Virus record (IMG/VR): IMGVR_UViG_3300028048_000059
Coordinates: 1 to 64,000 of that record
Length of the DNA stretch: 64,000 nt
DNA from: a virus
Lineage: Duplodnaviria > Caudoviricetes
Reading direction: 5' to 3' (one strand)
The position numbers and the translations under genes are program-made. Below, one piece after another: positions 4,580 through 48,700 of this stretch. The notes below the pieces were generated by a model. The model did no database searches and was not told the DNA's origin. It saw nothing but the letters and a program-made list of their open reading frames with translations. The stretch's first letter is position 1. Every line of letters begins with the position of its first letter.

Positions 4580-4676
4580 GTGGCGTGCCTTTCTGGTTTG
4601 TGAGGTTTTCCTTCCTCTGTTGTGTATTCATTATAGCATCTTTGTGCTGTAATGTCAAGTTAAGAGTTTGTTAAAG

Positions 4677-4803
4677 GGGAGTGGTGAGTTCTAACCATTC
4701 TTCGCTAATCCATCCAACAGGTTCCACCCTCTGCGTTTGTACGACTTATGCGCCATCACGTACTCGCCTTCGGCTCCGCTTGTGGGTTTCTGTCCCTTCA
4801 ACG
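4677..4803 (-). ncRNA. Candidate structured small RNA
   Basis: Own promoter TTGACA-N17-TAGAAT (4808-4836), no convincing ORF, nested stems ACCC/GGGU, GCG/CGC, GCC/GGC, GUACG/CGUAC. Confidence 0.45.
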
Positions 4804-4944
4804 TTTTTATTCTATCATGGAATCTTGTTTTTGTCAAGTTAAGAATGCGTTAAGATTTGGGCCGGTGGGCTTTTTAACTTGTGCTTAATAAAAAGAAAGA
4901 AGGTGTTGGCCTTCTTCTTTTATTTGATATGATTCCTTTATGAA

Positions 4945-5166: not shown

Positions 5167-5326
5167 GTTGCAGTTCCTTTCTGGTTTGAAGGGTTTCCTT
5201 CCCTTTGTTGTAATGTTATTATAGCACGGAAAGCGCTGTGTGTCAAGTTAAAAATCAGTAAAATTCTTGGCCGGCCCATTTTTTAACACAAAAATAACAT
5301 AACAAAAGAGCGCCCGAAGGCGCTCA

Positions 5327-6322
5327 TTAGTATTCGCAATTCCAACCACAGTAGGCCGCTAATTCATTAAGGCGATTCATCACGCTAACAACATATTTCG
5401 TCCTGTCCTCTTTGCTATCGATATACCGTGCCATTGCTTCATACACCGCGCGGCATTCGTCAAAATCGGGAACCTTGCGCCGCTGGCAGAAGTCGTAAGT
5501 AGTTCCCAAATCCCTAAAAGGAAAATACTTAATTCCCATGGTAATCGCGTGACGGTTTGCAATCTTGGACAAAATGAAAGTCTCAATAGTTGCGTCATCA
5601 AGCGCCGTGTGACTTTCGATAAAATCATACTTGTCGCACAAATATCTGTACGTGCTTTCCGCACTGGTCTTAAAGAATGTGCCGGAATTGGTGAACATGT
5701 CATAAGAAATACAATTCTTCTTATAGGACGCATTGTTCAACAGATGGGTAGTTGCAAGTCCCCACAAATCGAACAGAGGATAGCGCTTGCCGCGGAACAT
5801 AAAACCGTCATTATCGAATTCGTTCTTATTTTCCCGAGGCCCATTTACTATGATATTGTAGCAAAGATTGCGCTGCATTTTCTCCCACTCAAAATAATCC
5901 TTGCTATACAGTTTACGGATATACAGTTCCGTAAAGGGGATTGCTTTCTTAAAGTCGAACATAGAATTAAATGCGCCCACGCCATCAATATTTTCAATAT
6001 CGTGCAACCAAATATTCATGACTTCATTCCACGGCTTCACAGTAATTTCGCCGCGTTCAATCATATCAAGATAGATGGGACGCTTTTCTGCATAATATGC
6101 AGTATTGAACACAGACGGCACAGAGAACGTTTCCGCAATAAGAAACTGTTTCTTCTCATAGATATTACCCGCGCGGTCACAGATAGTATAGCCGAAGTCG
6201 TACACAAGAGGACGCGCGATAGCAATCTTCTTTTTGCGTTCAGAATCGCCATTTGCAAGTTCATTCGCAAAAGGCAGAGTGGCGGTTTCGGTGTCAACTA
6301 CACAGTACAGTTTCTTCTTCAT
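5327..6322 (-). CDS. DEDDh 3'-5' exonuclease (DnaQ-like)
   Basis: ExoI VVDTET, ExoII AFNSMFD, ExoIII HTALDD. Confidence 0.85.
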   Translation of the reverse strand: MKKKLYCVVDTETATLPFANELANGDSERKKKIAIARPLVYDFGYTICDRAGNIYEKKQFLIAETFSVPSVFNTAYYAEKRPIYLDMIERGEITVKPWNEVMNIWLHDIENIDGVGAFNSMFDFKKAIPFTELYIRKLYSKDYFEWEKMQRNLCYNIIVNGPRENKNEFDNDGFMFRGKRYPLFDLWGLATTHLLNNASYKKNCISYDMFTNSGTFFKTSAESTYRYLCDKYDFIESHTALDDATIETFILSKIANRHAITMGIKYFPFRDLGTTYDFCQRRKVPDFDECRAVYEAMARYIDSKEDRTKYVVSVMNRLNELAAYCGWNCEY

Positions 6323-6480
6323 TGTTTAATTCCCTTCTGGTTTGTCGAGTGTTTTCCTTCACTTGATGGATACATTATAGCACATTCCGCATCAATATGC
6401 AAGTTAAGAGTTGGTTAAATTTGCGGCCGGCCATAAATTTAACATAAAAATAACGACCATTGTTGTGGTCGTTATTTCTA

Positions 6481-6678
6481 TCAGTACACCGCGACGATTT
6501 CCACTTCATACTCTTCATTGTCATCGGTGATGAAAATGTAAGAGTAATCGTCTTCATCAATGATGGTGCGAATGCCAAAGCCAAGGTAGCCACCAACCGC
6601 GTTGCGTGCTTCTTTCAGAGTTTCGTAAGAGCCATGGACGCCATTCTCGAAGTAATCAGACCGAAGTGCGAAAGTCAT
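6481..6678 (-). CDS. Small acidic hypothetical protein (family D)
   Basis: GAGGAG RBS. SDYF...YETLKEA is shared with 6825..7037. Confidence 0.75.
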   Translation of the reverse strand: MTFALRSDYFENGVHGSYETLKEARNAVGGYLGFGIRTIIDEDDYSYIFITDDNEEYEVEIVAVY

Positions 6679-6824
6679 TTGCTTTTCTCCTCTCGTTGCT
6701 TTCTGGATATATTATAACGCTATTGGTGCGGGGTGTCAAGTTAAATGAAGGTTAAGATCTGGGCCGGCCGCTTTCTTTACGCAAATTTAACATAGAATGT
6801 AAAAGTAAAGACGCTTTCGCGCCT

Positions 6825-7037
6825 TTACCATCCTCGTCTGTCAATGTAGAAGTGGAACTCCTTTTTCAGACACGTGTCGTAGAGCGTCCACACGTCATCG
6901 GATTCCTGCCACAGCCCCGTGATTTCTGGGAACTGGTTGCAGAACTTGAAAATTCCGAGTTCTGCGTCTTCCAGAGTGTGATATACCTCAAAGAACGGAG
7001 AATCATCGAAGTAGTCAGAAGTGACGATGTACAGCAT
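6825..7037 (-). CDS. Small acidic hypothetical protein (family D)
   Basis: Leader and RBS, SDYF...YHTLEDA. Confidence 0.75.
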   Translation of the reverse strand: MLYIVTSDYFDDSPFFEVYHTLEDAELGIFKFCNQFPEITGLWQESDDVWTLYDTCLKKEFHFYIDRRGW

Positions 7038-7134
7038 GGTGTTGCCTTTCTGGTTTTAGAGCGTTCTTCCTTCGCTTGTTGGATATATTGTAACACACAA
7101 TGACATGATTGTCAAGAGTGTGGGATGTTAAAAA

Positions 7135-7398
7135 TTAGCTGTTTGCCACTGCGCACCTGGCAGCGGTAGGTTGCTATCCTAAGCGGTTATTACGTGTCTC
7201 TCTCACTCTCACGGATTTTTGTTCTAATGGGAGTTTTCTCTCCCCGCCCACTTTTCTTGTCTTGGTTGTGGTCGTTGCTGTCTACCTCACCCACCCAGCA
7301 GGATGGTTCCCCTCACGCTCACGCGGGTGACGCGGGCTTTTTTTAGGTGGGCTACCATACGCCTTGCGGCGGCCCTTTGAAGTGTTTCCCCACTTGAC
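7135..7398 (-). ncRNA. Candidate structured ncRNA (~260 nt)
   Basis: Own promoter (-35 at ~7428-7433) abutting a palindromic site. No ORF with an RBS. Multiple hairpins including CGCC-GCAA-GGCG. Confidence 0.55.
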
Positions 7399-7529
7399 GT
7401 ATATATAATATCATAGATTTGGCGATAAGTCAAGTTAAATATATGTAAAAATTTGGGCCGGCCGCATTTTTAACCTAAATTTAACATGCAATGTAAAAAA
7501 AGAAAAGCGCCCTCGGGCGCTTTCTTTTT

Positions 7530-7859
7530 TTACAGTCGCGTGTAGGTGTTGACCTTCTGGTCACGATTCGTCTTGACCTTATCGGCAAGCGCAGTGCGCA
7601 GAAGGTAGTTAAGCTTGGACTGGGAGAACCCTTCCGGCAGTTCCGCTTCGCAAGCGGCGAACAGTTCCTTGGAAGTCTGCGGCTCATCAGTCAGCGCCGC
7701 AAGCACAGTCGGGATCGCGGACTCATACAGCGCCGCGTTCGCCCGCGCCTTTTCGGTAAGCTTCGCCTGTTCCGCTTCCAGTTCAGTCAGCAGAGCGGCA
7801 GTGTCAACGTCAGCGCCATGCAGGTAGGAAATCATGGTTTCGAGAGTGGACTTCTTCAT
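7530..7859 (-). CDS. Putative winged-helix DNA-binding protein (family B)
   Basis: TSKELFAAC...SQSKLNYLL...VNTYT, leader and RBS. Confidence 0.7.
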   Translation of the reverse strand: MKKSTLETMISYLHGADVDTAALLTELEAEQAKLTEKARANAALYESAIPTVLAALTDEPQTSKELFAACEAELPEGFSQSKLNYLLRTALADKVKTNRDQKVNTYTRL

Positions 7860-7998
7860 AGGGCAAAATTCCTTTCTGGTTTTTAAGTGTTTCCCTTCAC
7901 TTGATGTATATATTATATCAGAAGTTCTGTCAGTTGTCAACTATTTTTTGTGTAAAGATTCAGTTAAATTCGCGGCCGGCCGGGTTTTTAACCCGGTC

Positions 7999-8235
7999 TT
8001 AATAGTCCTCGTCGATAGTAGTGCGCTCAATGCACCATATACCATTATCGGCATAGAACGTGTACATTCCAATCTCTGGCTCGATGTTACTGTCTTTGAT
8101 ATGACAGTTGTCATCTACAAGCATACGGCACATTACTGCCGTGGCTTTCTCCATAGAGGAAAATGCGCCAATGATTTGATAACAAAAATCATTCTGTCCC
8201 GTGCCATCGCCCATGCTCAAAATGTAAATGGTCAT
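7999..8235 (-). CDS. Small hypothetical protein
   Basis: AAGGAG RBS, own promoter. Confidence 0.75.
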   Translation of the reverse strand: MTIYILSMGDGTGQNDFCYQIIGAFSSMEKATAVMCRMLVDDNCHIKDSNIEPEIGMYTFYADNGIWCIERTTIDEDY

Positions 8236-8342
8236 ATTGAATATCTCCTTTCCTTTGTTCAAGAACATTATACCATAGAGAATGTTTGTTGTCAAGTTAA
8301 GAATGGGTAAAGTTTTGGGCCGGCCAACTTCTTTACAAGAAA

Positions 8343-8552
8343 TTAACCATATTCATCGAAATCAGATTCAAATGCCTCTTCAAAATCGTCCCATGTCTCA
8401 TAATGGAAATTGAAATCATCGCATTCTTCAATAGGATTTGAAATGCAACAATTTCCCCATTTGTTGATATAAGGACAATCAAATGCCTGTACGGGGCAAC
8501 GAATCGGGTGTCCGTTGTGGAACCCATTGGTTTCTTCAATTCGTTCAATCAT
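8343..8552 (-). CDS. Small Cys-rich acidic protein
   Basis: GGAGG RBS, CP..DCPY...CC...EC. Confidence 0.7.
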   Translation of the reverse strand: MIERIEETNGFHNGHPIRCPVQAFDCPYINKWGNCCISNPIEECDDFNFHYETWDDFEEAFESDFDEYG

Positions 8553-8694
8553 AATCAAATGCCCTCCCTTTGTGCTTTGTACGTGGATTCTTCTTCTTGT
8601 TCGGAATAATCTTCGTCGTAGGATTAATGGTGCCCCAATCGCCGCGCATCTTCTTGATGGTTTCATAAGTGGTGTTCTGGGGTTTGTTAGCCAT
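8545..8694 (-). CDS. 49-aa basic protein
   Basis: AAGGAGG RBS, own promoter. Confidence 0.7.
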   Translation of the reverse strand: MANKPQNTTYETIKKMRGDWGTINPTTKIIPNKKKNPRTKHKGRAFDYD

Positions 8695-8861
8695 GGTCTG
8701 CACCTCCTTGCTTTGTGTATATATTATATCAAACAATATGTGAGAAGTCAAGTTAAATATGGGTTAAAATGTGGGCCGGCCCTAATTTTAACATATGTTT
8801 AACTTGCAAATGAAATGCCAATGTAGTATAATAGTGGTGAAAGAAAGGAAGGGGTAACATT

Positions 8862-9386
8862 ATGAGAAGCAATTACGTAGAGCGTGCTGAGAAGTTCATG
8901 AAGTCGTTTGTTCGAAACTATGGGCATCCGTTTGGCTGTAAAAATATTGCAGAAGTGCGTGATATGGTTGAACGTTATAATGCTGCACATAAACGTATAC
9001 ATGTATCATACAGTTATGGTGTTAGTCGTTGTACGCTCATTCTGTCGGATTATGTCATTAAATGGGATTATGATGCTGAGAACGTCATGGAATGGGGCGG
9101 CTGCAAAAATGAGATGAAAATATACGCAAAAGCTTGCAAAATGGGTCTTCATAATGTGTTGGCACCAATTACAAGAATTAAAGTGTATGGACGTTTTTAT
9201 TATGTAATGCCGCGTTGCACTCGTACCGCATTTGGAGATAAGCATCATGATTTAACTTATTACATTGGAGAAGCACAAATGTGGGGATTGCATAATAGAC
9301 TACATCTTATTGATTTACACTGTGAAAACTGGGGGTTTCTGCATGGGCAAGCGACAGTCTTTGATTATGCGGCGTGTTGCGAATGA
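8862..9386 (+). CDS. Minimal protein-kinase-like fold protein (family C)
   Basis: Motifs GVSR, VIKWDY, E, DLHCENWG, VFDYA. Promoter at 8804-8832. Confidence 0.65.
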   Translation: MRSNYVERAEKFMKSFVRNYGHPFGCKNIAEVRDMVERYNAAHKRIHVSYSYGVSRCTLILSDYVIKWDYDAENVMEWGGCKNEMKIYAKACKMGLHNVLAPITRIKVYGRFYYVMPRCTRTAFGDKHHDLTYYIGEAQMWGLHNRLHLIDLHCENWGFLHGQATVFDYAACCE

Positions 9387-9477
9387 ATAACGGGGCGAAA
9401 TGCCCCGTTAATTATGGGTTAAAATAAAGGCCGGCCGCATTTTTAACATACATTTAACATTAAAATGAAAAAGAGGA

Positions 9478-9885
9478 TTATTCATCCTCTTTCTCATAAA
9501 TCATAGCGTCAAGTCCTTCGCTATTCAGTTTCTTAACAACCTTACGTGCGGCCGCCTTACGTTCTTTTTCCTTCTGCTTGCGGTCGCGTTCTTCCTGCCG
9601 CGCCTTTTTCTTTTCTTCATCAAGCGCGACGTCTTCCGCGTAGGCATCTGCGGCGGCATAGCCATCGTACGGAATGAACGTGCCATCAGAGCGGGAACCG
9701 CGCGGAATACTAATTTTAATCAGTGCAAACTTTTCGTTGCCATCTGCATCCAGTACCGGCATCATCAGTTCGCTTGCGCTAACCGGCTTTACATCCGTGT
9801 CGTAGTCATTGCTAAGTACTTGCTGAATGTGTGCAATAATCTGCATACGAAGCGCGCCATCCAAAGAAGCCTTACTCATATCCAT
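9478..9885 (-). CDS. Hypothetical protein with charged tail (family A)
   Basis: Leader and RBS. DADGNEKFA resembles DINGNKRYA of 4247; PYDGYAAA resembles FDPYEAA of 264. Confidence 0.8.
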   Translation of the reverse strand: MDMSKASLDGALRMQIIAHIQQVLSNDYDTDVKPVSASELMMPVLDADGNEKFALIKISIPRGSRSDGTFIPYDGYAAADAYAEDVALDEEKKKARQEERDRKQKEKERKAAARKVVKKLNSEGLDAMIYEKEDE

Positions 9886-10021
9886 TCCCTCTCTGGTTTT
9901 AAGATGTTTTCCTTCATCTATCGTAGATAATTATAGCATAACTTCTATAAGAAGTCAAGTAAAATCTATGTTAAAAATTGGACCGGCCATGTTTTTAACA
10001 TGACCTTAACACCCGAGGAAC

Positions 10022-39746: not shown

Positions 39747-42700
39747 ATGGCAGGTTCTAGTAGTGGAACTACTGTAACAATTGATTTAGGTGTACAACTT
39801 AGATTGATTGAATCATCTTTACGAGATGCACAAAATGCATTGAAGATGTTAAAACCCGATAGTAAGAGTTTTAAAGAGTTACAAAGGATTTTAGCTGTAA
39901 TTACACAGCAAATGAATAAAATTGAAGCGCAATCGAAATCACCGATTAGTTCGACGAAACAGTTAACGCAAATTGATAGGGAGTTTGCGAAAATTAATGA
40001 ATCAATCGCAAGTTTTCAGACTGCATTAAGTCATGTTGATTTTTCTGATTTGGAATTGGATCCGGGGACTGCAAAGCGATTTCAAGAGTTGACTGAACAA
40101 ATTGCGGCTTCACAGAAAAAATATGAAGATTTAAAACAAGCACAAGCAGAAGCATTAGGTAAAAATGCAGATGTACAGGCATTGGTGCCAGACTCAAAAG
40201 TTGTGCAAAAAGGGTATGATGCATTAGCACAAGCAATTGAAGATGGTGCTACCAAAACAGAAGCAGAATTAAGAGCGGCTGAAAAAGCATTAAACACATC
40301 AAAAAAGAAAATAGACATAGGAAAAAGAATTTATTCTATCACCGGCAATGATGGGAAAAATCGGCTACCGCAAGTAGAGAAACAAAAAATAACAGATGCT
40401 ATACCAGAACTTGATCGTTTTATAAGTACAGATAAAAATGGGGCGATGAGGTTTCGGAGTGGTACGCCATACGGTGGTGGAAAGAGCTTTGGCCCTGGTG
40501 AAGCAAAGCAACAGCTTATACAATATTTAAAGGAATTATATTCTTTAAATGACGCGGAAGTTACAAAATTAACAGAAGAAACTGCAAAAAGCACAAGCAC
40601 ACAATTTTTAGCAAAACTGGAAGAAGAAATCGGCAAAGGCGTAAAATCTGAAATTTTTGGGCGTTCTTTACGAGGATTTAAAAAAGCTTCTTCTGATATT
40701 GGGCAGCAAACAACTGATTATGAAGAAGCAAAAAGTAGAAATGAGCAAGCTCAACGTGCAAGAGATGCTTTAAATACTTCTGGTTCAATTATTGATGCTA
40801 GTAGTGAAACAACGCGTGAAGAAATAGAACATCTTAAAATAGAGATAGAGGATTTAAAAGCCAAATTAACACAAGCAGCACAAGCTAATACGCAAATGCA
40901 AAATAGCTTGAATGATATGGGTGACGCCGCGAAAAAAGGGCAACAAGACCTTGAAAAAACTAATAATGAATTAGAGCGTACAAAAACCGTCGCGTCTGCC
41001 TTTGACAGGATTAAACAAGGCATTATCAATTTCACTGGTTTCCACCAAGTAATGCGTATGGTAGGTTCTGCTGTCCGCGAAGCAATGAATCATATAAAGC
41101 AACTTGACTCAACTATGAATGGTATTGCTATTGTTACTAATATGACGACGGCGGACCTGTGGGATCAGGTTGGAGTATATAGCGATATTGCTCGTCAATA
41201 TGGCGTTAGTATTCAAGGTGCTTATGAAGTTTCTAAAATTTACTATCAGGCAGGTTATGAAACTAATGAAGTAATGACCTTGATGAACGAAACATTAAAG
41301 CTATCTAAAATTTCTGGCCTAGATTATGCAACAACAACCGACTACATGATGACCGCAATGCGCGGCTTCAAGTTAGAAATGGAAGATGCGTCACACGTAG
41401 TTGACGTTTATAGCGGTTTGGCCGCCAATACTGCTGTATCACAGAAAGAATTGGCAGAGGCTATGACACGTACTGCATCTTCTATGGAATCTGTTGGTGC
41501 AACATTTGAAGAAACATCCGCTATGATTGCTACCATGGTAGCTGTTACTCGTGAGTCTGCTAGTAACATTGGTAGCGCGATGAAGAGTATAGGTAGTAGG
41601 TTTGGTGAATTAACAAAAGACCCAACCGCATTGTTAGATGCGGAAGGCGAAGCAATGAGCTTCAACAAAGTTGACAAAGCATTACGTTCTGTTGGTATTA
41701 CGTTGCAAACAACAGATCACCAATTCCGTGACTTTACTGATGTAATTTTAGAGTTGGCTGATAAGTGGGATACATTGGATTCTGCTCAACAGCGTTATAT
41801 AGCGACTCAATTCGCAGGAAATCGTTTGGTATTGCTGGCGTTTTCAAGAGCTGCGTAAAAACTCAAAATAAAACAACGTGAATTGCGGGGACATCCTTAG
41901 AGTCTTTTTAACTAAACATTCATAGTAATATAGAATGCGGCTTTCAGTAATGATGAAAGGTATGGTAAAATCAAAAAGAATTGGATAATCCGCAAGCAAG
42001 CATCCCAATATTTGACAAGATAGAATTTTTATGTTATAATAAAAGAAAAAGGTTGAATTTTATGTTTAAAAAAATTATTTTAGATGGAGAAACCACACGA
42101 TGGTCAGTTGATGAAAGTGGCCGCGTTAGGAATGATGAAACAGGTCATTTTTTAACTGGTACGATTTTACATAGCTATCGTTATATTAATTTTCGATGGA
42201 ACGGTAAACAGAAGAATAAGTCAGTTCATCGTTTAGTGGCAGAAGCATTTTTGCCCAATCCAGAAAATTTGCCTTATGTTCATCATAAAGATGGAAATAG
42301 GTTAAATAATAATTTGGAAAATTTGGAATGGGTTACGGAGCAAGATAACCGTTTAGAAGCTATAATGCCGCAAGGATATAAAAAATATGATGGTACTAAG
42401 ATCGAAGGCGAGCAATGGCGCTATTTTAGAGATAGCGTTTATCAAGTATCTGATTACGGGCGTGTTAAAAACACAAAAACTGGAAAAATTTTAAAAGGCA
42501 CTGCCAGTGATTGTGGTTATATTCGAGTAGATTTACAATTAGCTGGACAAAAGCGTCGTAAATTTTTAGTTCATCAATTAGTCTATGAGTGTTTTGTTTC
42601 TCCTGAATTTGATGTTATTAATCATATAGATGGTAATAAAAAAAATAATAAAGTAAGTAATTTAGAGAGTGTATCTCATAAAGAAAATTTACAAAAAGCC

Positions 42701-45700
42701 GCGAACGAAACTAATGCATGGCATTTTAGGAAAGTTGCACAATATGATTTAGAAGGCAATTATATTCGAACGTTTTTAAATGCCTCTGATGCCGGTAGGG
42801 CCATGGGTATCTTACCTAGTAGCATGAGAAATTGTATTCGTTTGCGTGGTGGAAAACATAAAAATTTTATTTTTAAATATATTGATGAGGATGAAGCTTC
42901 ATCGACCATCTCGGAAGAGAGTAGGGTGAATAGCCCGAAGTGCGTTGCCCACACTAGTGGTGAAGATATGGTCAAAACTGAATGAGAAATCTTCAGATAC
43001 AAAAATAGCGTGCTATTATAGCACGCTTTTTGTATGCCTTTTTATAAAGGTAGAATTACAGCAATCTCGTTTCTTAGCTCTCGTATCCAATGGAGATCTA
43101 TTGCGTGAAAATCTACGTGTCGCAGAAACTAGCGATGATGTAGGTACAATTCAAGCATTGAAAGCATTGGATTCATTGGAATCGAAGTTAGAGCAAGTTC
43201 GAGTTAGTTATCAACAATTCTATACGTCGATGGGTATTGAGAGCGTATGGAAAGGATTCTTAGATGGCGTTCGACGGGTTATTGATAATTTAAATAAATT
43301 ACCTAAGTTATTTGGTAAATTACCAGTTAATGCAGTCGTTATGATTGCTAATTTGGTTAAAGTTATTAGTCATGGTTTACTAAGTGGGTTAAATAAAATT
43401 GCACAAAATGTTCAAAGTATTATTCAACGTATTAATAAAAACTCCAAGACAGAAGCCGATCAAGGCGGTACGCAGGTTGGAAAAACATGGGTAGATAAAA
43501 TTGTTGATTCAATTACACAGGGGCAAAGTAAGGTTGAACAAGCGGCTCGCGAAACAGTTCAAAAGGCAAATAAAGCGGCGGAAGAAGCTGCGCAAGAAGT
43601 CACGAATGTACAAAAATCAAAGACTAGCAAAGATATTGCGAAGGATGGCCTTAAAGATAACGGCATAGCCGGTATTACTATACCAAAAGGGCAGGCAGCA
43701 GCTGATAAAGCACAATTTAATCGTGATTTATATAATGCATTAGTTGATACATCAAATCCAGAGCAAACTGCGGCTACGTTAGACCCAATTCTTGAAGGCG
43801 TTAATAACGGTACTATAAGTTATAAACAAGCTTTATTAGATGCATCCGCGGCTGTCGCAAAAAATACAAATGAAGCCAAAGGGCTCGGCGACACCATGGA
43901 TTTAGTGGGAAAAAATACTGATAAATTTAAAACAAGCGCAGGCAATTCTGTTGGTGTTGTAGATTCTTTAGTTAAAGAAACCAGTAAAATGGAAACAACA
44001 ACAAAAACTTCTGCTAAGATATGGGAATCTTTTAAATCTGGAGGAGCGTGGAACAAAGCCGCTGTTGGTATTGGAACTGCGATGCAGGCCGCGGCTATGT
44101 TAATTGACACAAGTTCGCGTGCTGGTGAAGTTGCATCTGGGAGCTTTACTACGCTAGGTAGCGCAGTATCAGGTATTGCTGCCGGTGTACGTGTGTTCTC
44201 TGGTGATTTAAGTGCATTACCGCAATTATTATCTAGTGCTGTTTCTCTTTTTAGTGGTATAGGTTTAATAGTTGAAACTGATGCTGAAAAAGTAGAACGT
44301 TTAACAAAAGAAGCTGAAAAATTATCCAATGAAGCGTTGGTTAAGAAAAATGAATATAATACGCTAGATCAGAGTATTAAAAAGTTAGAAGAATTAGAAG
44401 AAAAAAGATATGATAGTGCAGAAGCTGCCGAGGAATATCAAACTGCTGTTGATGAGCTAGCAAAGCAATATCCAGAATTAATTACTGGAATTGATGAGTT
44501 GGGAAATGTTACTATTGAAACTGCGAACATCGAATATGAATTGGAAAAAGCTCGTGCCGCGGCAGCAGAGGCAACATATAATGCGGCCCAAGCTGAACGA
44601 GAAAAAGCTATCGCAGAACGAGATAGTGCTTTAAATGCTTTAACAGGGAAAAAAGAACAAACTTCATATGCGCACAGTATGAATCCAACTGATGGGAGAA
44701 AAGATAATACAAAACGCTTGACGGAGCAAGCATGGAATGAAATTATTGGGGATTATACTGGCAAAACAGATCTTTCTGGATTATACAACACAGATCAGAA
44801 TGGCTTTACAGAATGGATTACTACAGCTGATGGTTTTACCGAGAAGCTATTAAGAGAGATTCTTGAAGGCGCGGCAAACGCCAATTTTGTGGATACGAAT
44901 ACTGGATTTACAATAGTAGCTGGTGAGCCAAACGAAGATAAGAAGGAAATATCTATAAATGAAATTTTGTCTCAATATTTTGATGAATCTGGCGAATTGA
45001 CAGATACAGGTTTAATGTCAAAAATTGATAAAGAAATAGAAGATTTAAATCATGATATTGAAGCAAAAAAGTTTGATGGCGATGAAGGTACTCAAGAATA
45101 TATAAAAAGATCCAAAGCAATTATTGATTTAATTACAGCTAACGGTTTACAGGGATACTATGAGAATTTTTTAGAAAATACGACAGGTGTCACTGAGGCA
45201 GCTAGTGAGTTAGAACGCTCTCGTCGAGTATTGTTATCCACTTCAAAAATAACCATCGATGCTGCGGTTAAAACATATGCTGGCGGTCAAACAGAATTTT
45301 TAGAATCATTAGGTAATTCTAACGCACTTTTAAATCAATATTTATTTGATAAAGCAAATGAACTTGATGCTTATGATTTAGAAAATGATCCAGATGCAAT
45401 TGAAAAGTTTAAGAATTCTGATGATTTTGCAGAAGGTATTGAGGCTTACAAGGCTGAATTTGAAGCATTGTCACCATCCGACACTAAAAAATTCTTAGAC
45501 ATGTGGAAGAATCGCCAAAATTATTCTGAGCAAGATTGGATGGAAGTTTTTGATTTTGACGGCGCATCTGTAATTTGGCAAAGTATTCAAGGATATTATA
45601 GTGATCAAGCTATTGGTTATAGAGATCAATTAGAGCGTTTAAAAAAGCAAATTGATCGTTTGCCAAAAGAAAGCACTTCCGATACATTATTTTCAAATCT

Positions 45701-48700
45701 AGAAAATACGTTACGAGAATTTGCTCCATATTTATCTAGTTCTTTAACTAAGTGGATTGGTGGAGTCTTTGATGAATATGAAAAATATGTTTCTCAAGGT
45801 TTTTATAGCAATGCTAATGATTTAATTATGGGTTTAACTGGCGCCTTAACGTCTTTACAAGGTATGTCAGAAGATGACCGTTTAAATGCCGAGAATATTC
45901 TTCAACAAGTTGATTTTTCATCAATTGAAAGCATTGATAAAGCCATAGAAGCCGCTACTGCTGCTGGCTTTGAGGTTGACTCTTTCATTGTAACTAGTTT
46001 AAATAAAATCAAAGAAGCATATGTATTTAATTTACCATTAGCTATTCAATCATACACAGATCAAATTGTTGCTGGCGCAGATGAATTAGAGCAGTCTTTA
46101 AAAAAGATTAGAAGTGGAGTATCTTTTTCAGAAGCATTAACTGCCATAGAAAAAATAAATACTTATGCAAAGGGCGTACCAGAAGTTTCATTACGAGATT
46201 TTGATCAAAAGAATGGCAAGTTGGTGTTAAATAATCCAGAACTTTTAAAGGCTTACATTGATGCAGAGCGTGCTTCGTTAAAAGAGTCATATGCTCCAAT
46301 TAAAGGAGAACTTGAAAAATATAAAACAGATCAGGAGAAAGGTATTAAAGGAGCATATGTCGATCTTTTAGACACATTAAAGGAAAATGATACTGAGATT
46401 GATGAAAGCATCACTAAACATGCGAATTTAATTAATGCGTTAGAAGCTGCTGGTTTGGCCTATCAAGGCGATGATAAACTTTGGTATACGGTTAAAGATT
46501 TTACTAGCAAAATAGACGGTGGATCTGCTTCGGATTGGATGGTTAATTGGTTACAACAACAACAAGCCAATGCTGACGAAGTAATGAAATACTTCGATAG
46601 CGAGATTATACCATCATTATTCTTAGATGCAGGCTTATATACAGATTATTTAGACGGTATCAAGGCAGCTTTCACTGACGAGCAAGGCAATTTTAATGAC
46701 GTCTTCAATGAACATTTAAATTTTAAAGATATTGCACAAGGTAATTTTTCTGGTATTGAAGATAAGAGAATCGTTAACAATATTCTCCGTCCAGCCCAAG
46801 AAAAAATTAATTCTGAAATGAATACTTTCCTTTCGGATATTATTGAGAAAGGCATTGATAATATTTATTTCCCAGACTATGATTTAGGTTTTGCTGGCGC
46901 TAACGTTCAAAATAACGTTGCAAGCATCTTGGCTGGCCCGAATGGATATACTAATTTAATAAAAGAGTATGGCTCCTGGCTCGGTAATTCCATTGAAGAC
47001 TACAACTCAATGTTCCTCTCTGCCTTAGAAAAAGACACTCAAAAAACACAAGCAATTTCCGACGTTATTAATGACGTCACCTTCATCGGAAAGGATCTCG
47101 CCTATGCATCCGCAGACACAATTAAAGAAATCGCTGATATCTATGGTATGCGCATGGATGAGTTGTTCGATGTTGATAGTTATAATGAAGCATTGGGCGG
47201 CTATCAAGTTAATTTCGCCGCCATTAAAGATTTCTCGCTAGATGAAATTCAAGGCGGCATGGAAGCAGTAGCTGATAGTACCAACTCGTTCTTCCAAGCC
47301 ATGGCAGAAACCATTACCAATGGTATTGAAGGCAAATTAACCTATGGTGAATTAGGTGAATTCCGTCAACGTTTAGATGCATTTGGTATTAATTTGGATT
47401 TGTCATTTAAGCGGACGGCGGATGGATTACAATTAAGCACCAATTCTGCTCGCGATCTCTACTTTGAATTACTGAAAATCGATGCTTTGCAAGCACGTCT
47501 TGTGTTCGATTCTTTGGTTGAATCGTTGGAAGAAACCGATGAGCATTATAAAGACATCAGTTCTATTGCTGCACGTATTGCAGAATTACAAGACTTAATT
47601 GATGATGTTAAAACCAATGATGCGCGTCGCAAGCAATATATGGATGAACTTGAATTAGCAAAAGAAATCTATCAAGTTCGTTCTTCCACAGACAACGATT
47701 CCTTTGATTTCATGAATCGTGACTTGGCACCCGGCATGCAGAACCCAATTGATTATTGGAATGCTGGCGGCGAAGCCTATACCGCGATGAATGAGGCCGC
47801 GAAGAGCGGTTACATGAAAATCGAGGACTTCTACAATATTGTTAATGAAATGAACAACATGGCTGCGACTAGCGGCCAAACGCTTATCTTTATGGGCCAG
47901 ACTCTTAGCGGGAGCGCAGAAGATGCGGCCGCACTTATTGAGGCCGGTTTTGGTGCTTTAAAGAATGTCGATGGTAAGGGTGTGCAAATTTCATTAAAGG
48001 ATATTGGTGCTGGATTTGATGTTGGCGCCGCAGCGATGACCAAAGACTTCGATTCTGGCTTGAAAGCTATGGCGAAGTCGCAGATTGAAATGATTGACTC
48101 TGCCATTAGGATGTTGGAAACGGTTGCTGCATTGGAAGAAATAGACACCGACGAAGACGGCGTGCTTTCAATGGATGAAGTCTTTGATGGGAATGAACTT
48201 AGTGAAAATGTACAACAATGGATTAAAGATACTGATATAGCCGCTGGCGGTATTACTATTGGCGGTAAAACACTATTTGAAGCTATCGACGGTTTAGACC
48301 CCGCGCAAGCTGTTGCCTTATTAAACGAATGGAAAGATATCGATTTCTCCGATCCAATTGCTGCTTGGGATTCAATTAGACAACTTTTGAATATCTATTT
48401 CCCCGGTGCAGAAATCGTAAAAGGCGAATCAATTTTTGATATTTTGAAAGTTCCAAGCGGTGCGAAGGAAGATAGTGAGGCATTTGCAGACTGGGCAGAA
48501 AGTTTAGGGTTAGTTAGTAGCTCAGCAAAAGGAATGATAGATTTCCTTGAAAAAGGGCATGAATTGCAAACTGGTTTACCTTGGTATGAAGCAGTTAAAA
48601 AAGCTTTACTTGGTGATAATACTAGTGAAGATGTTTCTAATTTATTTGATCTTTTTGCCGGGTCTAGTTTATCCGCAGAAGACATGCAATTATGGTCTAA

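Follow-up and report, generated by a model that had tools for sequence, protein, structure and literature searches.

A candidate non-coding cargo behind its own promoter in the early-gene array of an uncultured rumen-type phage

When a phage promoter is followed by a stretch without a gene, is that stretch an RNA gene in its own right, part of a longer transcript, or debris? The question is raised by a minus-strand segment, here called X (positions 7116-7398), of the window analyzed, which comprises the first 64,000 nucleotides of the 157,489-bp IMG/VR virus record IMGVR_UViG_3300028048_000059 (estimated completeness, 91%). X is free of a credible open reading frame (ORF) and lies between two promoters, P1 before it and P2 after it. 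The original prediction had described a discrete, structured, unclassified non-coding RNA (ncRNA) of about 260 nt, whose purine-rich loops could sponge up the binding protein of the leader hairpins. A discrete structured 260-nt sponge at 7116-7398 is not supported by the present analysis. X is instead a plausible candidate for a phage RNA gene, and real, orphan non-coding cargo that is probably under selection. In its full form, the reading that we favor tentatively is that X is a selected RNA-level element, carried as the non-coding cargo of a single unit in an early array that is palindrome-bounded and has one promoter per gene; a maintained RNA-level element is preferred because X contains near-invariant blocks, the P1 hexamers are invariant, and one hairpin is stable only on the transcribed strand.

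Strain variants of the locus were collected from public ENA and Logan assemblies via exact-sequence look-ups of two flanking proteins. Among the 26 loci obtained, X occurred as 12 distinct haplotypes that measured 282-287 nt and shared 88-99% identity with the window, and none had a large deletion. About 77% of X was nearly invariant (13 of 219 columns variable, 5.9%), and three patches were variable, at transcript positions 40-55, 138-149 (5/12 columns), and 232-267; the first and last are patches a and c in Table 1. For the same haplotypes, 39 of 88 four-fold sites in the flanking genes were variable (42-45% on either side), along with 13 of 358 sites at codon positions 1 and 2, and the X blocks differed from the four-fold sites with a Fisher p of 2e-14. 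Mean pairwise difference was 0.066-0.087 for X, compared with 0.16-0.17 at synonymous sites (pS) and 0.003-0.02 at nonsynonymous sites (pN) of the flanking genes. Upstream of X, where 11 distinct haplotypes were compared, none of the 12 hexamer positions of P1 and none of the 8 positions of the GGCCGGCC site core varied, against 6 of the 17 spacer positions (35%) and 20 of 65 other positions. The promoter that had been predicted to adjoin a site at 7456 was found, with the GGCCGGCC core inside a larger palindrome and P1 next to it. As in a stand-alone small RNA (sRNA) gene, X has a promoter of its own, strong and of the host type, with hexamers invariant in the 11 haplotypes. The predicted P1 transcript starts near 7398 and opens with the leader-like hairpin AAGUG-GGGAAA-CACUU, as had been proposed.

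The ORF-less stretch itself was confirmed at about 283 nt instead of about 260 nt, as it ends at 7116 and the -35 hexamer of P2 starts at 7115. The only ATG ORF in the segment is the one of 23 codons that had been noticed before, with AAGG just 3 nt before its ATG, and no CCAGAAAGG-type or AGGAGG-type ribosome binding site (RBS) was found in X. This ORF and its AAGG are what a micro-peptide reading, for this or another short frame, has in its favor. Among the 12 haplotypes, the ATG was kept in two, replaced by TTG in four, and absent from six, and indels of +2, -1, -1, and +1 nt, with more in the 3' patch, broke all three forward frames and likewise a 50-aa plus-strand frame. The 23-codon ORF is not regarded as real because its ATG is lost or TTG in most haplotypes and indels of 1-3 nt shift every frame. 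Variable sites showed no codon periodicity, and the spacing from the Shine-Dalgarno (SD)-like AAGG to the ATG is too short. X does not have the properties of a small protein-coding gene; the micro-peptide reading is largely refuted and can be given almost no credence, and the description of X as non-coding stood up, since neither start codon nor frame is conserved.

Two sub-segments of X beat their shuffles, 7282-7335 (z = -2.76) and 7226-7277 (z = -3.3), both of which were picked after the fact; the second includes the GGGAG-AGAAAA-CUCCC hairpin. The first is a long imperfect hairpin that folds at -27 kcal/mol in the sense direction and at -14.9 kcal/mol (z = -0.14) in the antisense direction; it is strand-specific because several of its pairs are G-U, and in these folding models this is consistent with an RNA transcribed from P1. 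The three substitutions seen in this hairpin are all structure-neutral (a C-G pair to U-G, one loop change, and one bulge change), and in haplotypes having a G-to-U change at 7290, it alternates with the shorter CCAUCC-UGCU-GGGUGG hairpin. The stem of the 5' hairpin was invariant, with both changes in its loop. All eight further helices that had been proposed are present, with 93.5% of cells pairing in 9 haplotypes and 3 of 72 stem columns variable in helices 1-8 of the prediction, except that UCACCC/GGGUGA and CCAUCC/GGGUGG cannot both form in full because two G residues are shared. Each version of the 3' hairpin tip in patch c retained a hairpin of -10 to -20 kcal/mol, and the outer stem still pairs, with G-U to G-C and U-A to U-G as its only changes. 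Using single-sequence minimum free energy (MFE) folds and the columns before 235, variable columns were depleted at paired positions for seven of nine references (p = 0.0004-0.03). GUGAG was the single enriched word in X, with five copies that are mostly, not fully, conserved; none of 2,000 dinucleotide shuffles reached five copies, and any 5-mer reached five in 44 of 2,000 (2.2%).

Two hairpins speak for a sponge that titrates a protein bound to the leader hairpins of other cassettes: the 5' hairpin closely matches the leader hairpin found in the neighboring cassette, and a second hairpin has the purine loop AGAAAA. The leader-type motif occurs only once, at the 5' end, as in every such cassette, and the other loops (GCAA and GGAA/UGCU) are unlike the AAGGAAAA loop. 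Against dinucleotide shuffles, X contained one leader-loop core (0.63 expected, P[>=obs] = 0.46), four GGA (5.9 expected, P[>=obs] = 0.91), and four SD-like words (5.3 expected, P[>=obs] = 0.76), and Tandem Repeats Finder gave 0 rows for X at a minimum score of 30. Sponges of the CsrB/RsmZ type carry many motif copies, with purine motifs in hairpin loops, whereas X has one leader-type hairpin and GGA below chance expectation. No binding protein for these leader hairpins is known, and a sponge is very improbable. An antitoxin RNA of the type III ToxI kind was rejected as well, as it needs tandem direct repeats of about 34-36 nt and X has none. The longest complementarity of X to its own genome as an antisense target was 13 nt, within chance.

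Table 1. Features of the unit containing X, in window coordinates
Feature	Position	Strand	Remarks
Intrinsic terminator of 109-aa gene (7530-7859)	7503..7524	-	9-bp stem, 5 GC pairs, U-run; left edge of unit
Palindromic site, GTTAA arms around GGCCGGCC core 7456-7463	7434..7490	.	~57 bp; abuts P1 -35
Promoter P1, TTGACT-17-TATTAT + TG extension	7405..7433	-	sigma-70-type
X, ORF-less predicted-transcribed segment	7116..7398	-	~283 nt; 53% GC; A 32, G 28, C 25, U 14.5%
5' hairpin AAGUG-GGGAAA-CACUU	7380..7395	-	standard leader hairpin of the array, without the usual CCAGAAAGG RBS after it
23-codon ATG ORF	7287..7358	-	not conserved
Variable patch a	7344..7359	-	13/17 columns variable; several allelic forms
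Long imperfect hairpin	7282..7335	-	19 bp, several G-U pairs, apical loop GGAA
Hairpin GGGAG-AGAAAA-CUCCC	7229..7244	-	stem invariant in 12 haplotypes; sole change in loop
Five GUGAG words	7202..7322	-	tandem pairs 6 nt apart (7322/7316, 7212/7206) and a single copy at 7290
Variable patch c, tip of 3' hairpin	7132..7167	-	17/36 columns variable; at least 4 versions
Promoter P2, TTGACA-17-TACAAT	7087..7115	-	without full palindromic site; one TTAAC arm upstream
70-aa gene	6825-7037	-	after P2, standard leader hairpin and CCAGAAAGG RBS
Terminator of 70-aa gene	6829..6804	-	

The unit in Table 1 is one of many. The phage is uncultured and rumen-type, and the window codes for a portal, a terminase-like protein, a tape-measure protein, and a 3,865-aa ORF; the portal is 23-29% identical to portals of the listed Firmicutes phages and about 67-71% identical to portals on uncultured contigs, whose record names suggest an origin in ruminant gut. 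Its first ~20 kb form an array of small genes, mainly on the minus strand, each with a near-consensus sigma-70 promoter of its own. About 33 minus-strand promoters were counted in these 20 kb, most of which match the consensus at 12/12 or 11/12 positions, and in front of many stand a ~57-bp palindrome (GTTAA arms flanking GGCCGGCC) and the terminator that ends the preceding gene. The palindromic sites fall into families D1-D5, with 12-18 copies in the first 12 kb, and within the first 10 kb, about 10 leaders have in common a 5' hairpin that has a AAGGAAAA-type loop and is followed by AAACCAGAAAGG as RBS. At the 3' end of X, a search for a degenerate site scored one TTAAC arm only (E = 4-8). 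The terminator region at 7542-7489, at the other edge of the unit, reached z = -8.6 in a sliding fold.

GGCCGGCC was counted 20 times in the record of this phage (G000), nearly all in the array and at the other contig end (155970 and 156830), compared with two copies and none in two complete relatives (G001 and G002, respectively), and the palindrome is therefore regarded as lineage-specific. The 109-aa gene upstream of X (7530-7859, minus strand) is a member of a multi-copy family, with three copies each in the related records G001, G002, G003, and G005, at 33-42% identity and all in early regions. In one ENA contig (L116:905-1237), AT-rich DNA follows the terminator of the 109-aa gene, starting from within the left palindrome arm, and codes for the N-terminus of a protein that is ClpP-like as judged by eye, without a family search; the junction is either an assembly chimera or a different neighbor joined at the palindromic site.

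The slot between P1 and P2 does not always hold X. At least nine loci (L092, L095, and L105-L111) have the same P1 and P2 with other cargo between them (in L092, at 1114-1500), which consists of an AAGGAG RBS and a 51-aa ORF starting MNLYDAVMEAL. The swap extends from just after the -10 hexamer of P1 to just before the -35 hexamer of P2, and the stop codon of the 51-aa ORF lies within the TTAAC arm that abuts this -35 hexamer. About one-quarter of the sampled contigs carry the 51-aa allele instead of X. No similarity was found between X and the 51-aa cassette, and searches of the 51-aa protein and the neighboring proteins against Pfam and PHROGs gave no usable match.

This arrangement resembles the promoter-early stem-loop (PeSL) cassettes of T4-type phages, in which cargo is swapped between close relatives (Arbiol et al. 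2010, PMC2839356). In both, sigma-70-like early promoters and terminator stem-loops flank small, non-essential cargo in a hyperplastic region, and recombination at the regulatory modules replaces the cargo, here X by the 51-aa ORF or the reverse. Strong sigma-70-like promoters beside terminator stem-loops are repeated through the small-gene region of the window, and cargo is replaced between close relatives at these regulatory modules, with P1 and P2 as the breakpoints. Unlike PeSL cassettes, the modules carry the ~57-bp GGCCGGCC/TTAAC palindrome, which related phages lack, and the X cargo is without an ORF; the phage itself is not T4-type, given its tape-measure protein and its portal identity to listed phages.

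Two more minus-strand units with a site, P1, an ORF-less stretch, and P2 were found in the array, at 4658-4837 and 2701-2803. Their ORF-less stretches measure about 150 nt (4809-4658) and 70 nt (2775-2701), and each is followed by a P2 without a site, a leader hairpin, an RBS, and a gene. No similarity was detected between X and either stretch, or between the two. The unit at 2775 opens with the same ACGTCAAGGGG as X. Strain variants of the second ORF-less unit came from one near-identical genome only.

Non-coding cargo was also seen in the relatives. In G001 (the record of L003), positions 43217-43380 on the plus strand, inside L123, have the promoter TTGACA-17-TATTAT followed by about 115 nt that end in a clean intrinsic terminator (AAGCGGTTTTAACCGCTT, then a T run), with no ORF longer than 13 codons, and look sRNA-like. 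This orphan unit opens CGGGGAGAGA...ACUCCC, similar to the GGGAG hairpin in X, and had no blast match in G000 or G002. In G002 (the record of L012), tRNA genes lie directly after array-type promoters at 41294-41700, 47569-47658, and 165591-165830; ARAGORN found 27 tRNAs in this record, one of which has the anticodon CUA (labeled Pyl) and is a possible TAG suppressor. ARAGORN detected no tRNA or transfer-messenger RNA in the 64-kb window, and the five tRNAs of the phage lie at 111-117 kb. The non-coding cargo behind like promoters in these relatives, both the G001 orphan unit and the G002 tRNAs, counts in favor of X as selected non-coding cargo.

Several results weigh against that reading. The whole of X folds with an MFE of -85.6 kcal/mol (z = -1.28), which 19 of 200 dinucleotide shuffles equaled, and in a sliding 54-nt scan of 5300-9900, 1 of the 14 windows in X had z <= -2.5, against 20 of 253 overall, so that X is no more structured than its coding neighbors. 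None of 60 RNAalifold pairs showed a compensatory double change and one of the 41 pairs in the original prediction did, not above shuffles, in a test that has little power at a haplotype divergence of at most 12%. In these models, X has neither the above-shuffle fold nor the compensatory changes of a structured ncRNA in the strict sense, and what is left of the predicted structure is a few hairpins with no covarying pair. About one-quarter of the sampled contigs having the 51-aa allele also means that X is dispensable.

The low diversity of X can in part be questioned too. Pairs of haplotypes with near-identical X had flanks that were 12-14% apart at synonymous sites, which implies that X has been exchanged between backbones, and the patches of X assort independently among haplotypes. 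X may therefore be younger than its flanks, and recombination confounds its low diversity and weakens the comparison with the flanking genes; part of the contrast survives because 35% of positions vary in the P1 spacer, at a distance of just 10-30 nt from X, compared with 6% in the X blocks. The dense changes of patches a and c sit in quasi-palindromes. In patch a, GGUAGCCC of the window corresponds in clade B to GGGAUCCC, a perfect palindrome and BamHI-like site, and this change looks like the signature of template switching at a quasi-palindrome. From their sequences, the changes in both patches could each stem from one template switch at the DNA level and not from RNA-driven remodeling.

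Homologues of X were found at the strain level only in the collections searched, and therefore deep conservation cannot be shown. Using Rfam 15 at gathering thresholds, there were no matches in the whole window, X included, and the label of an unclassified ncRNA is kept in the sense that no known family matches. At E <= 10, the region 7000-7520 gave a 26-nt terminator-like match to sbrA outside X (17.6 bits vs. 45) and, besides this, just a 13-bit snoRNA match. Positions 6700-7900 had no megablast or blastn match among 50,697 phage records, and with X as query, five related phage records, whose portals are about 70% identical, gave nothing by blast at E <= 10. An X profile searched with nhmmer --max against its own genome and two complete relatives found itself only and no paralogue, and a covariance model of the central 119 nt gave one 30-nt, 15.5-bit match in the five relatives. 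Exact searches with two conserved 20-21-mers of X gave 0 matches in IMG/VR, 17 in GTDB genomes, and 5 in JGI metagenomes, all of the latter two sets in unrelated contexts by inspection. The flanking small proteins gave no anchors in IMG/VR, and the 70-aa protein formed a single >=99% cluster among 5.8 billion proteins.

The main rival explanation treats X as what cassette shuffling left over, either a decayed protein cassette or recombination filler, which would have no function itself and be kept only since P1 boosts transcription of the 70-aa gene. X opens like a coding cassette: the leader hairpin is the same and is followed after 22 nt by an ATG (26 nt in the neighbor), and the GC content of X (53%) and its purine bias resemble those of cassette ORFs (57% and 47%; genome mean, 38%). 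A real ORF occupies the same slot in other strains, the two further ORF-less units, mutually dissimilar and of about 150 and 70 nt, look like a deletion series of dead cassettes, and P2 retains one palindrome arm, as after an illegitimate join. The chance-level fold and the lack of covariation, homologues, and a terminator would be expected as well. The haplotypes argue the other way, as the X blocks are 5.9% variable against 35% in the nearby P1 spacer and 42-45% at four-fold sites, and no large deletion occurred in 12 haplotypes. A six-frame tblastn search of X (stop codons written as the letter X) against the phage and two relatives returned noise only, with no translated similarity among their ORFs, and a strand-specific hairpin is not what a relic predicts. 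We consider a relic somewhat doubtful, and it is the explanation most in competition with a selected RNA-level element.

The next rival concerns the end of the transcript. From 7503 to 6829, no terminator was predicted. In the window, 11 nt separate a run of five U from the GC-rich part of the 3' hairpin, and clade-B haplotypes interrupt this run (AAAUCUU); in the 51-aa allele, likewise, nothing lies between the cargo and P2. X therefore lacks the defined 3' end of an sRNA gene, and the discrete transcript of about 260 nt that had been proposed does not hold, as there is no conserved terminator between X and P2 or the 70-aa gene. For the same reason, a transcript from P1, if not processed, probably continues via P2 and across the 70-aa gene, ending at about 6804.

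Such co-transcription speaks for a cis-acting leader of the P1 transcript, whether as a stabilizer, as an element for reading through terminators, or as a tuner of translation of the 70-aa gene. X stands at the very 5' end, hairpin first and purine-rich, and a read-through element would have many terminators to override in the array. The put RNA of phage HK022 makes RNA polymerase read through terminators by means of cis-acting stem-loops just after the promoter, and the position of X, directly after P1 and upstream of terminators, would fit such an element. Translation-independent 5' stabilizers are known, one of them in SP82 phage mRNA as summarized in PMC7509114 (citing Hue et al. 1995), and Firmicutes and phage examples, namely the SP82 polypurine stabilizer and STAB-SD, are reviewed in PMC7509114 and PMC3997798. 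Like X, these are untranslated, purine-rich 5' ends of phage early transcripts, and X shares a 5'-terminal hairpin with the array's other leaders. They are short and need a strong SD-like word, whereas X has 283 nt and SD-like words that are not enriched (4 vs. 5.3 expected). The 70-aa gene already has P2 and a standard leader, so that there is no obvious need for a further leader of 283 nt; X is U-poor and showed no complementarity to the leader or RBS after P2, and no Rfam cis-regulatory family matched. A cis-acting leader is improbable on balance.

For X as a selected RNA-level element, a working model can be outlined. P1 would make an untranslated, purine-rich RNA with a few stable, strand-specific hairpins, and the RNA of X would be the 5' part of a ~0.6-kb transcript ending at about 6804, unless processed. 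Our best guess is that X would work at the RNA level, either as a platform on which a factor of the host or the phage binds or as a decoy for it, with the invariant hairpins and the GUGAG pairs as possible contact points and the hairpin tips free to vary. A bolder version, which we consider quite improbable, is that X is a trans-acting RNA gene interchangeable with the 51-aa protein for the same early-infection task, for instance, neutralizing a host defense or an RNA-binding factor, in which the conserved hairpin bodies would serve as scaffold and the tips in patches a and c as specificity determinants under diversifying selection.

Among known phage RNAs, sRNA1 and sRNA2 of the Pseudomonas phage PAK_P3 were detected by RNA sequencing (RNA-seq), have about 100 nt, and are late (PMC4933390); the T4 band C and D RNAs are further phage orphan sRNAs according to their citation in that paper. 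X is like the PAK_P3 type in being a short, ORF-less intergenic unit of a lytic-type phage, without an Rfam family and present in close relatives only. Unlike those RNAs, which were seen by RNA-seq, X is a candidate predicted from sequence, is about 283 nt long, lies in an early-type cassette, and has no terminator of its own. X is an orphan candidate phage ncRNA in a PeSL-like array and belongs to a known, poorly characterized kind, not to a new one.

The most interesting point is that RNA cargo and protein cargo alternate in one promoter slot. Lytic-phage ncRNAs are little known, and most candidates come from RNA-seq alone. To these, X adds a population-genetic signal, seen in promoter hexamers that do not vary, in blocks whose conservation equals that of amino-acid-determining positions, and in a strand-specific hairpin, and the X allele and the ORF allele on similar backbones provide a clean natural comparison. 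If X is a relic, cassette shuffling leaves behind promoter-driven junk that can be mistaken for ncRNA genes, which calls for caution in annotating such arrays. If X is functional, RNA cargo is traded alongside protein cargo in the modular early arrays of large phages from gut and rumen.

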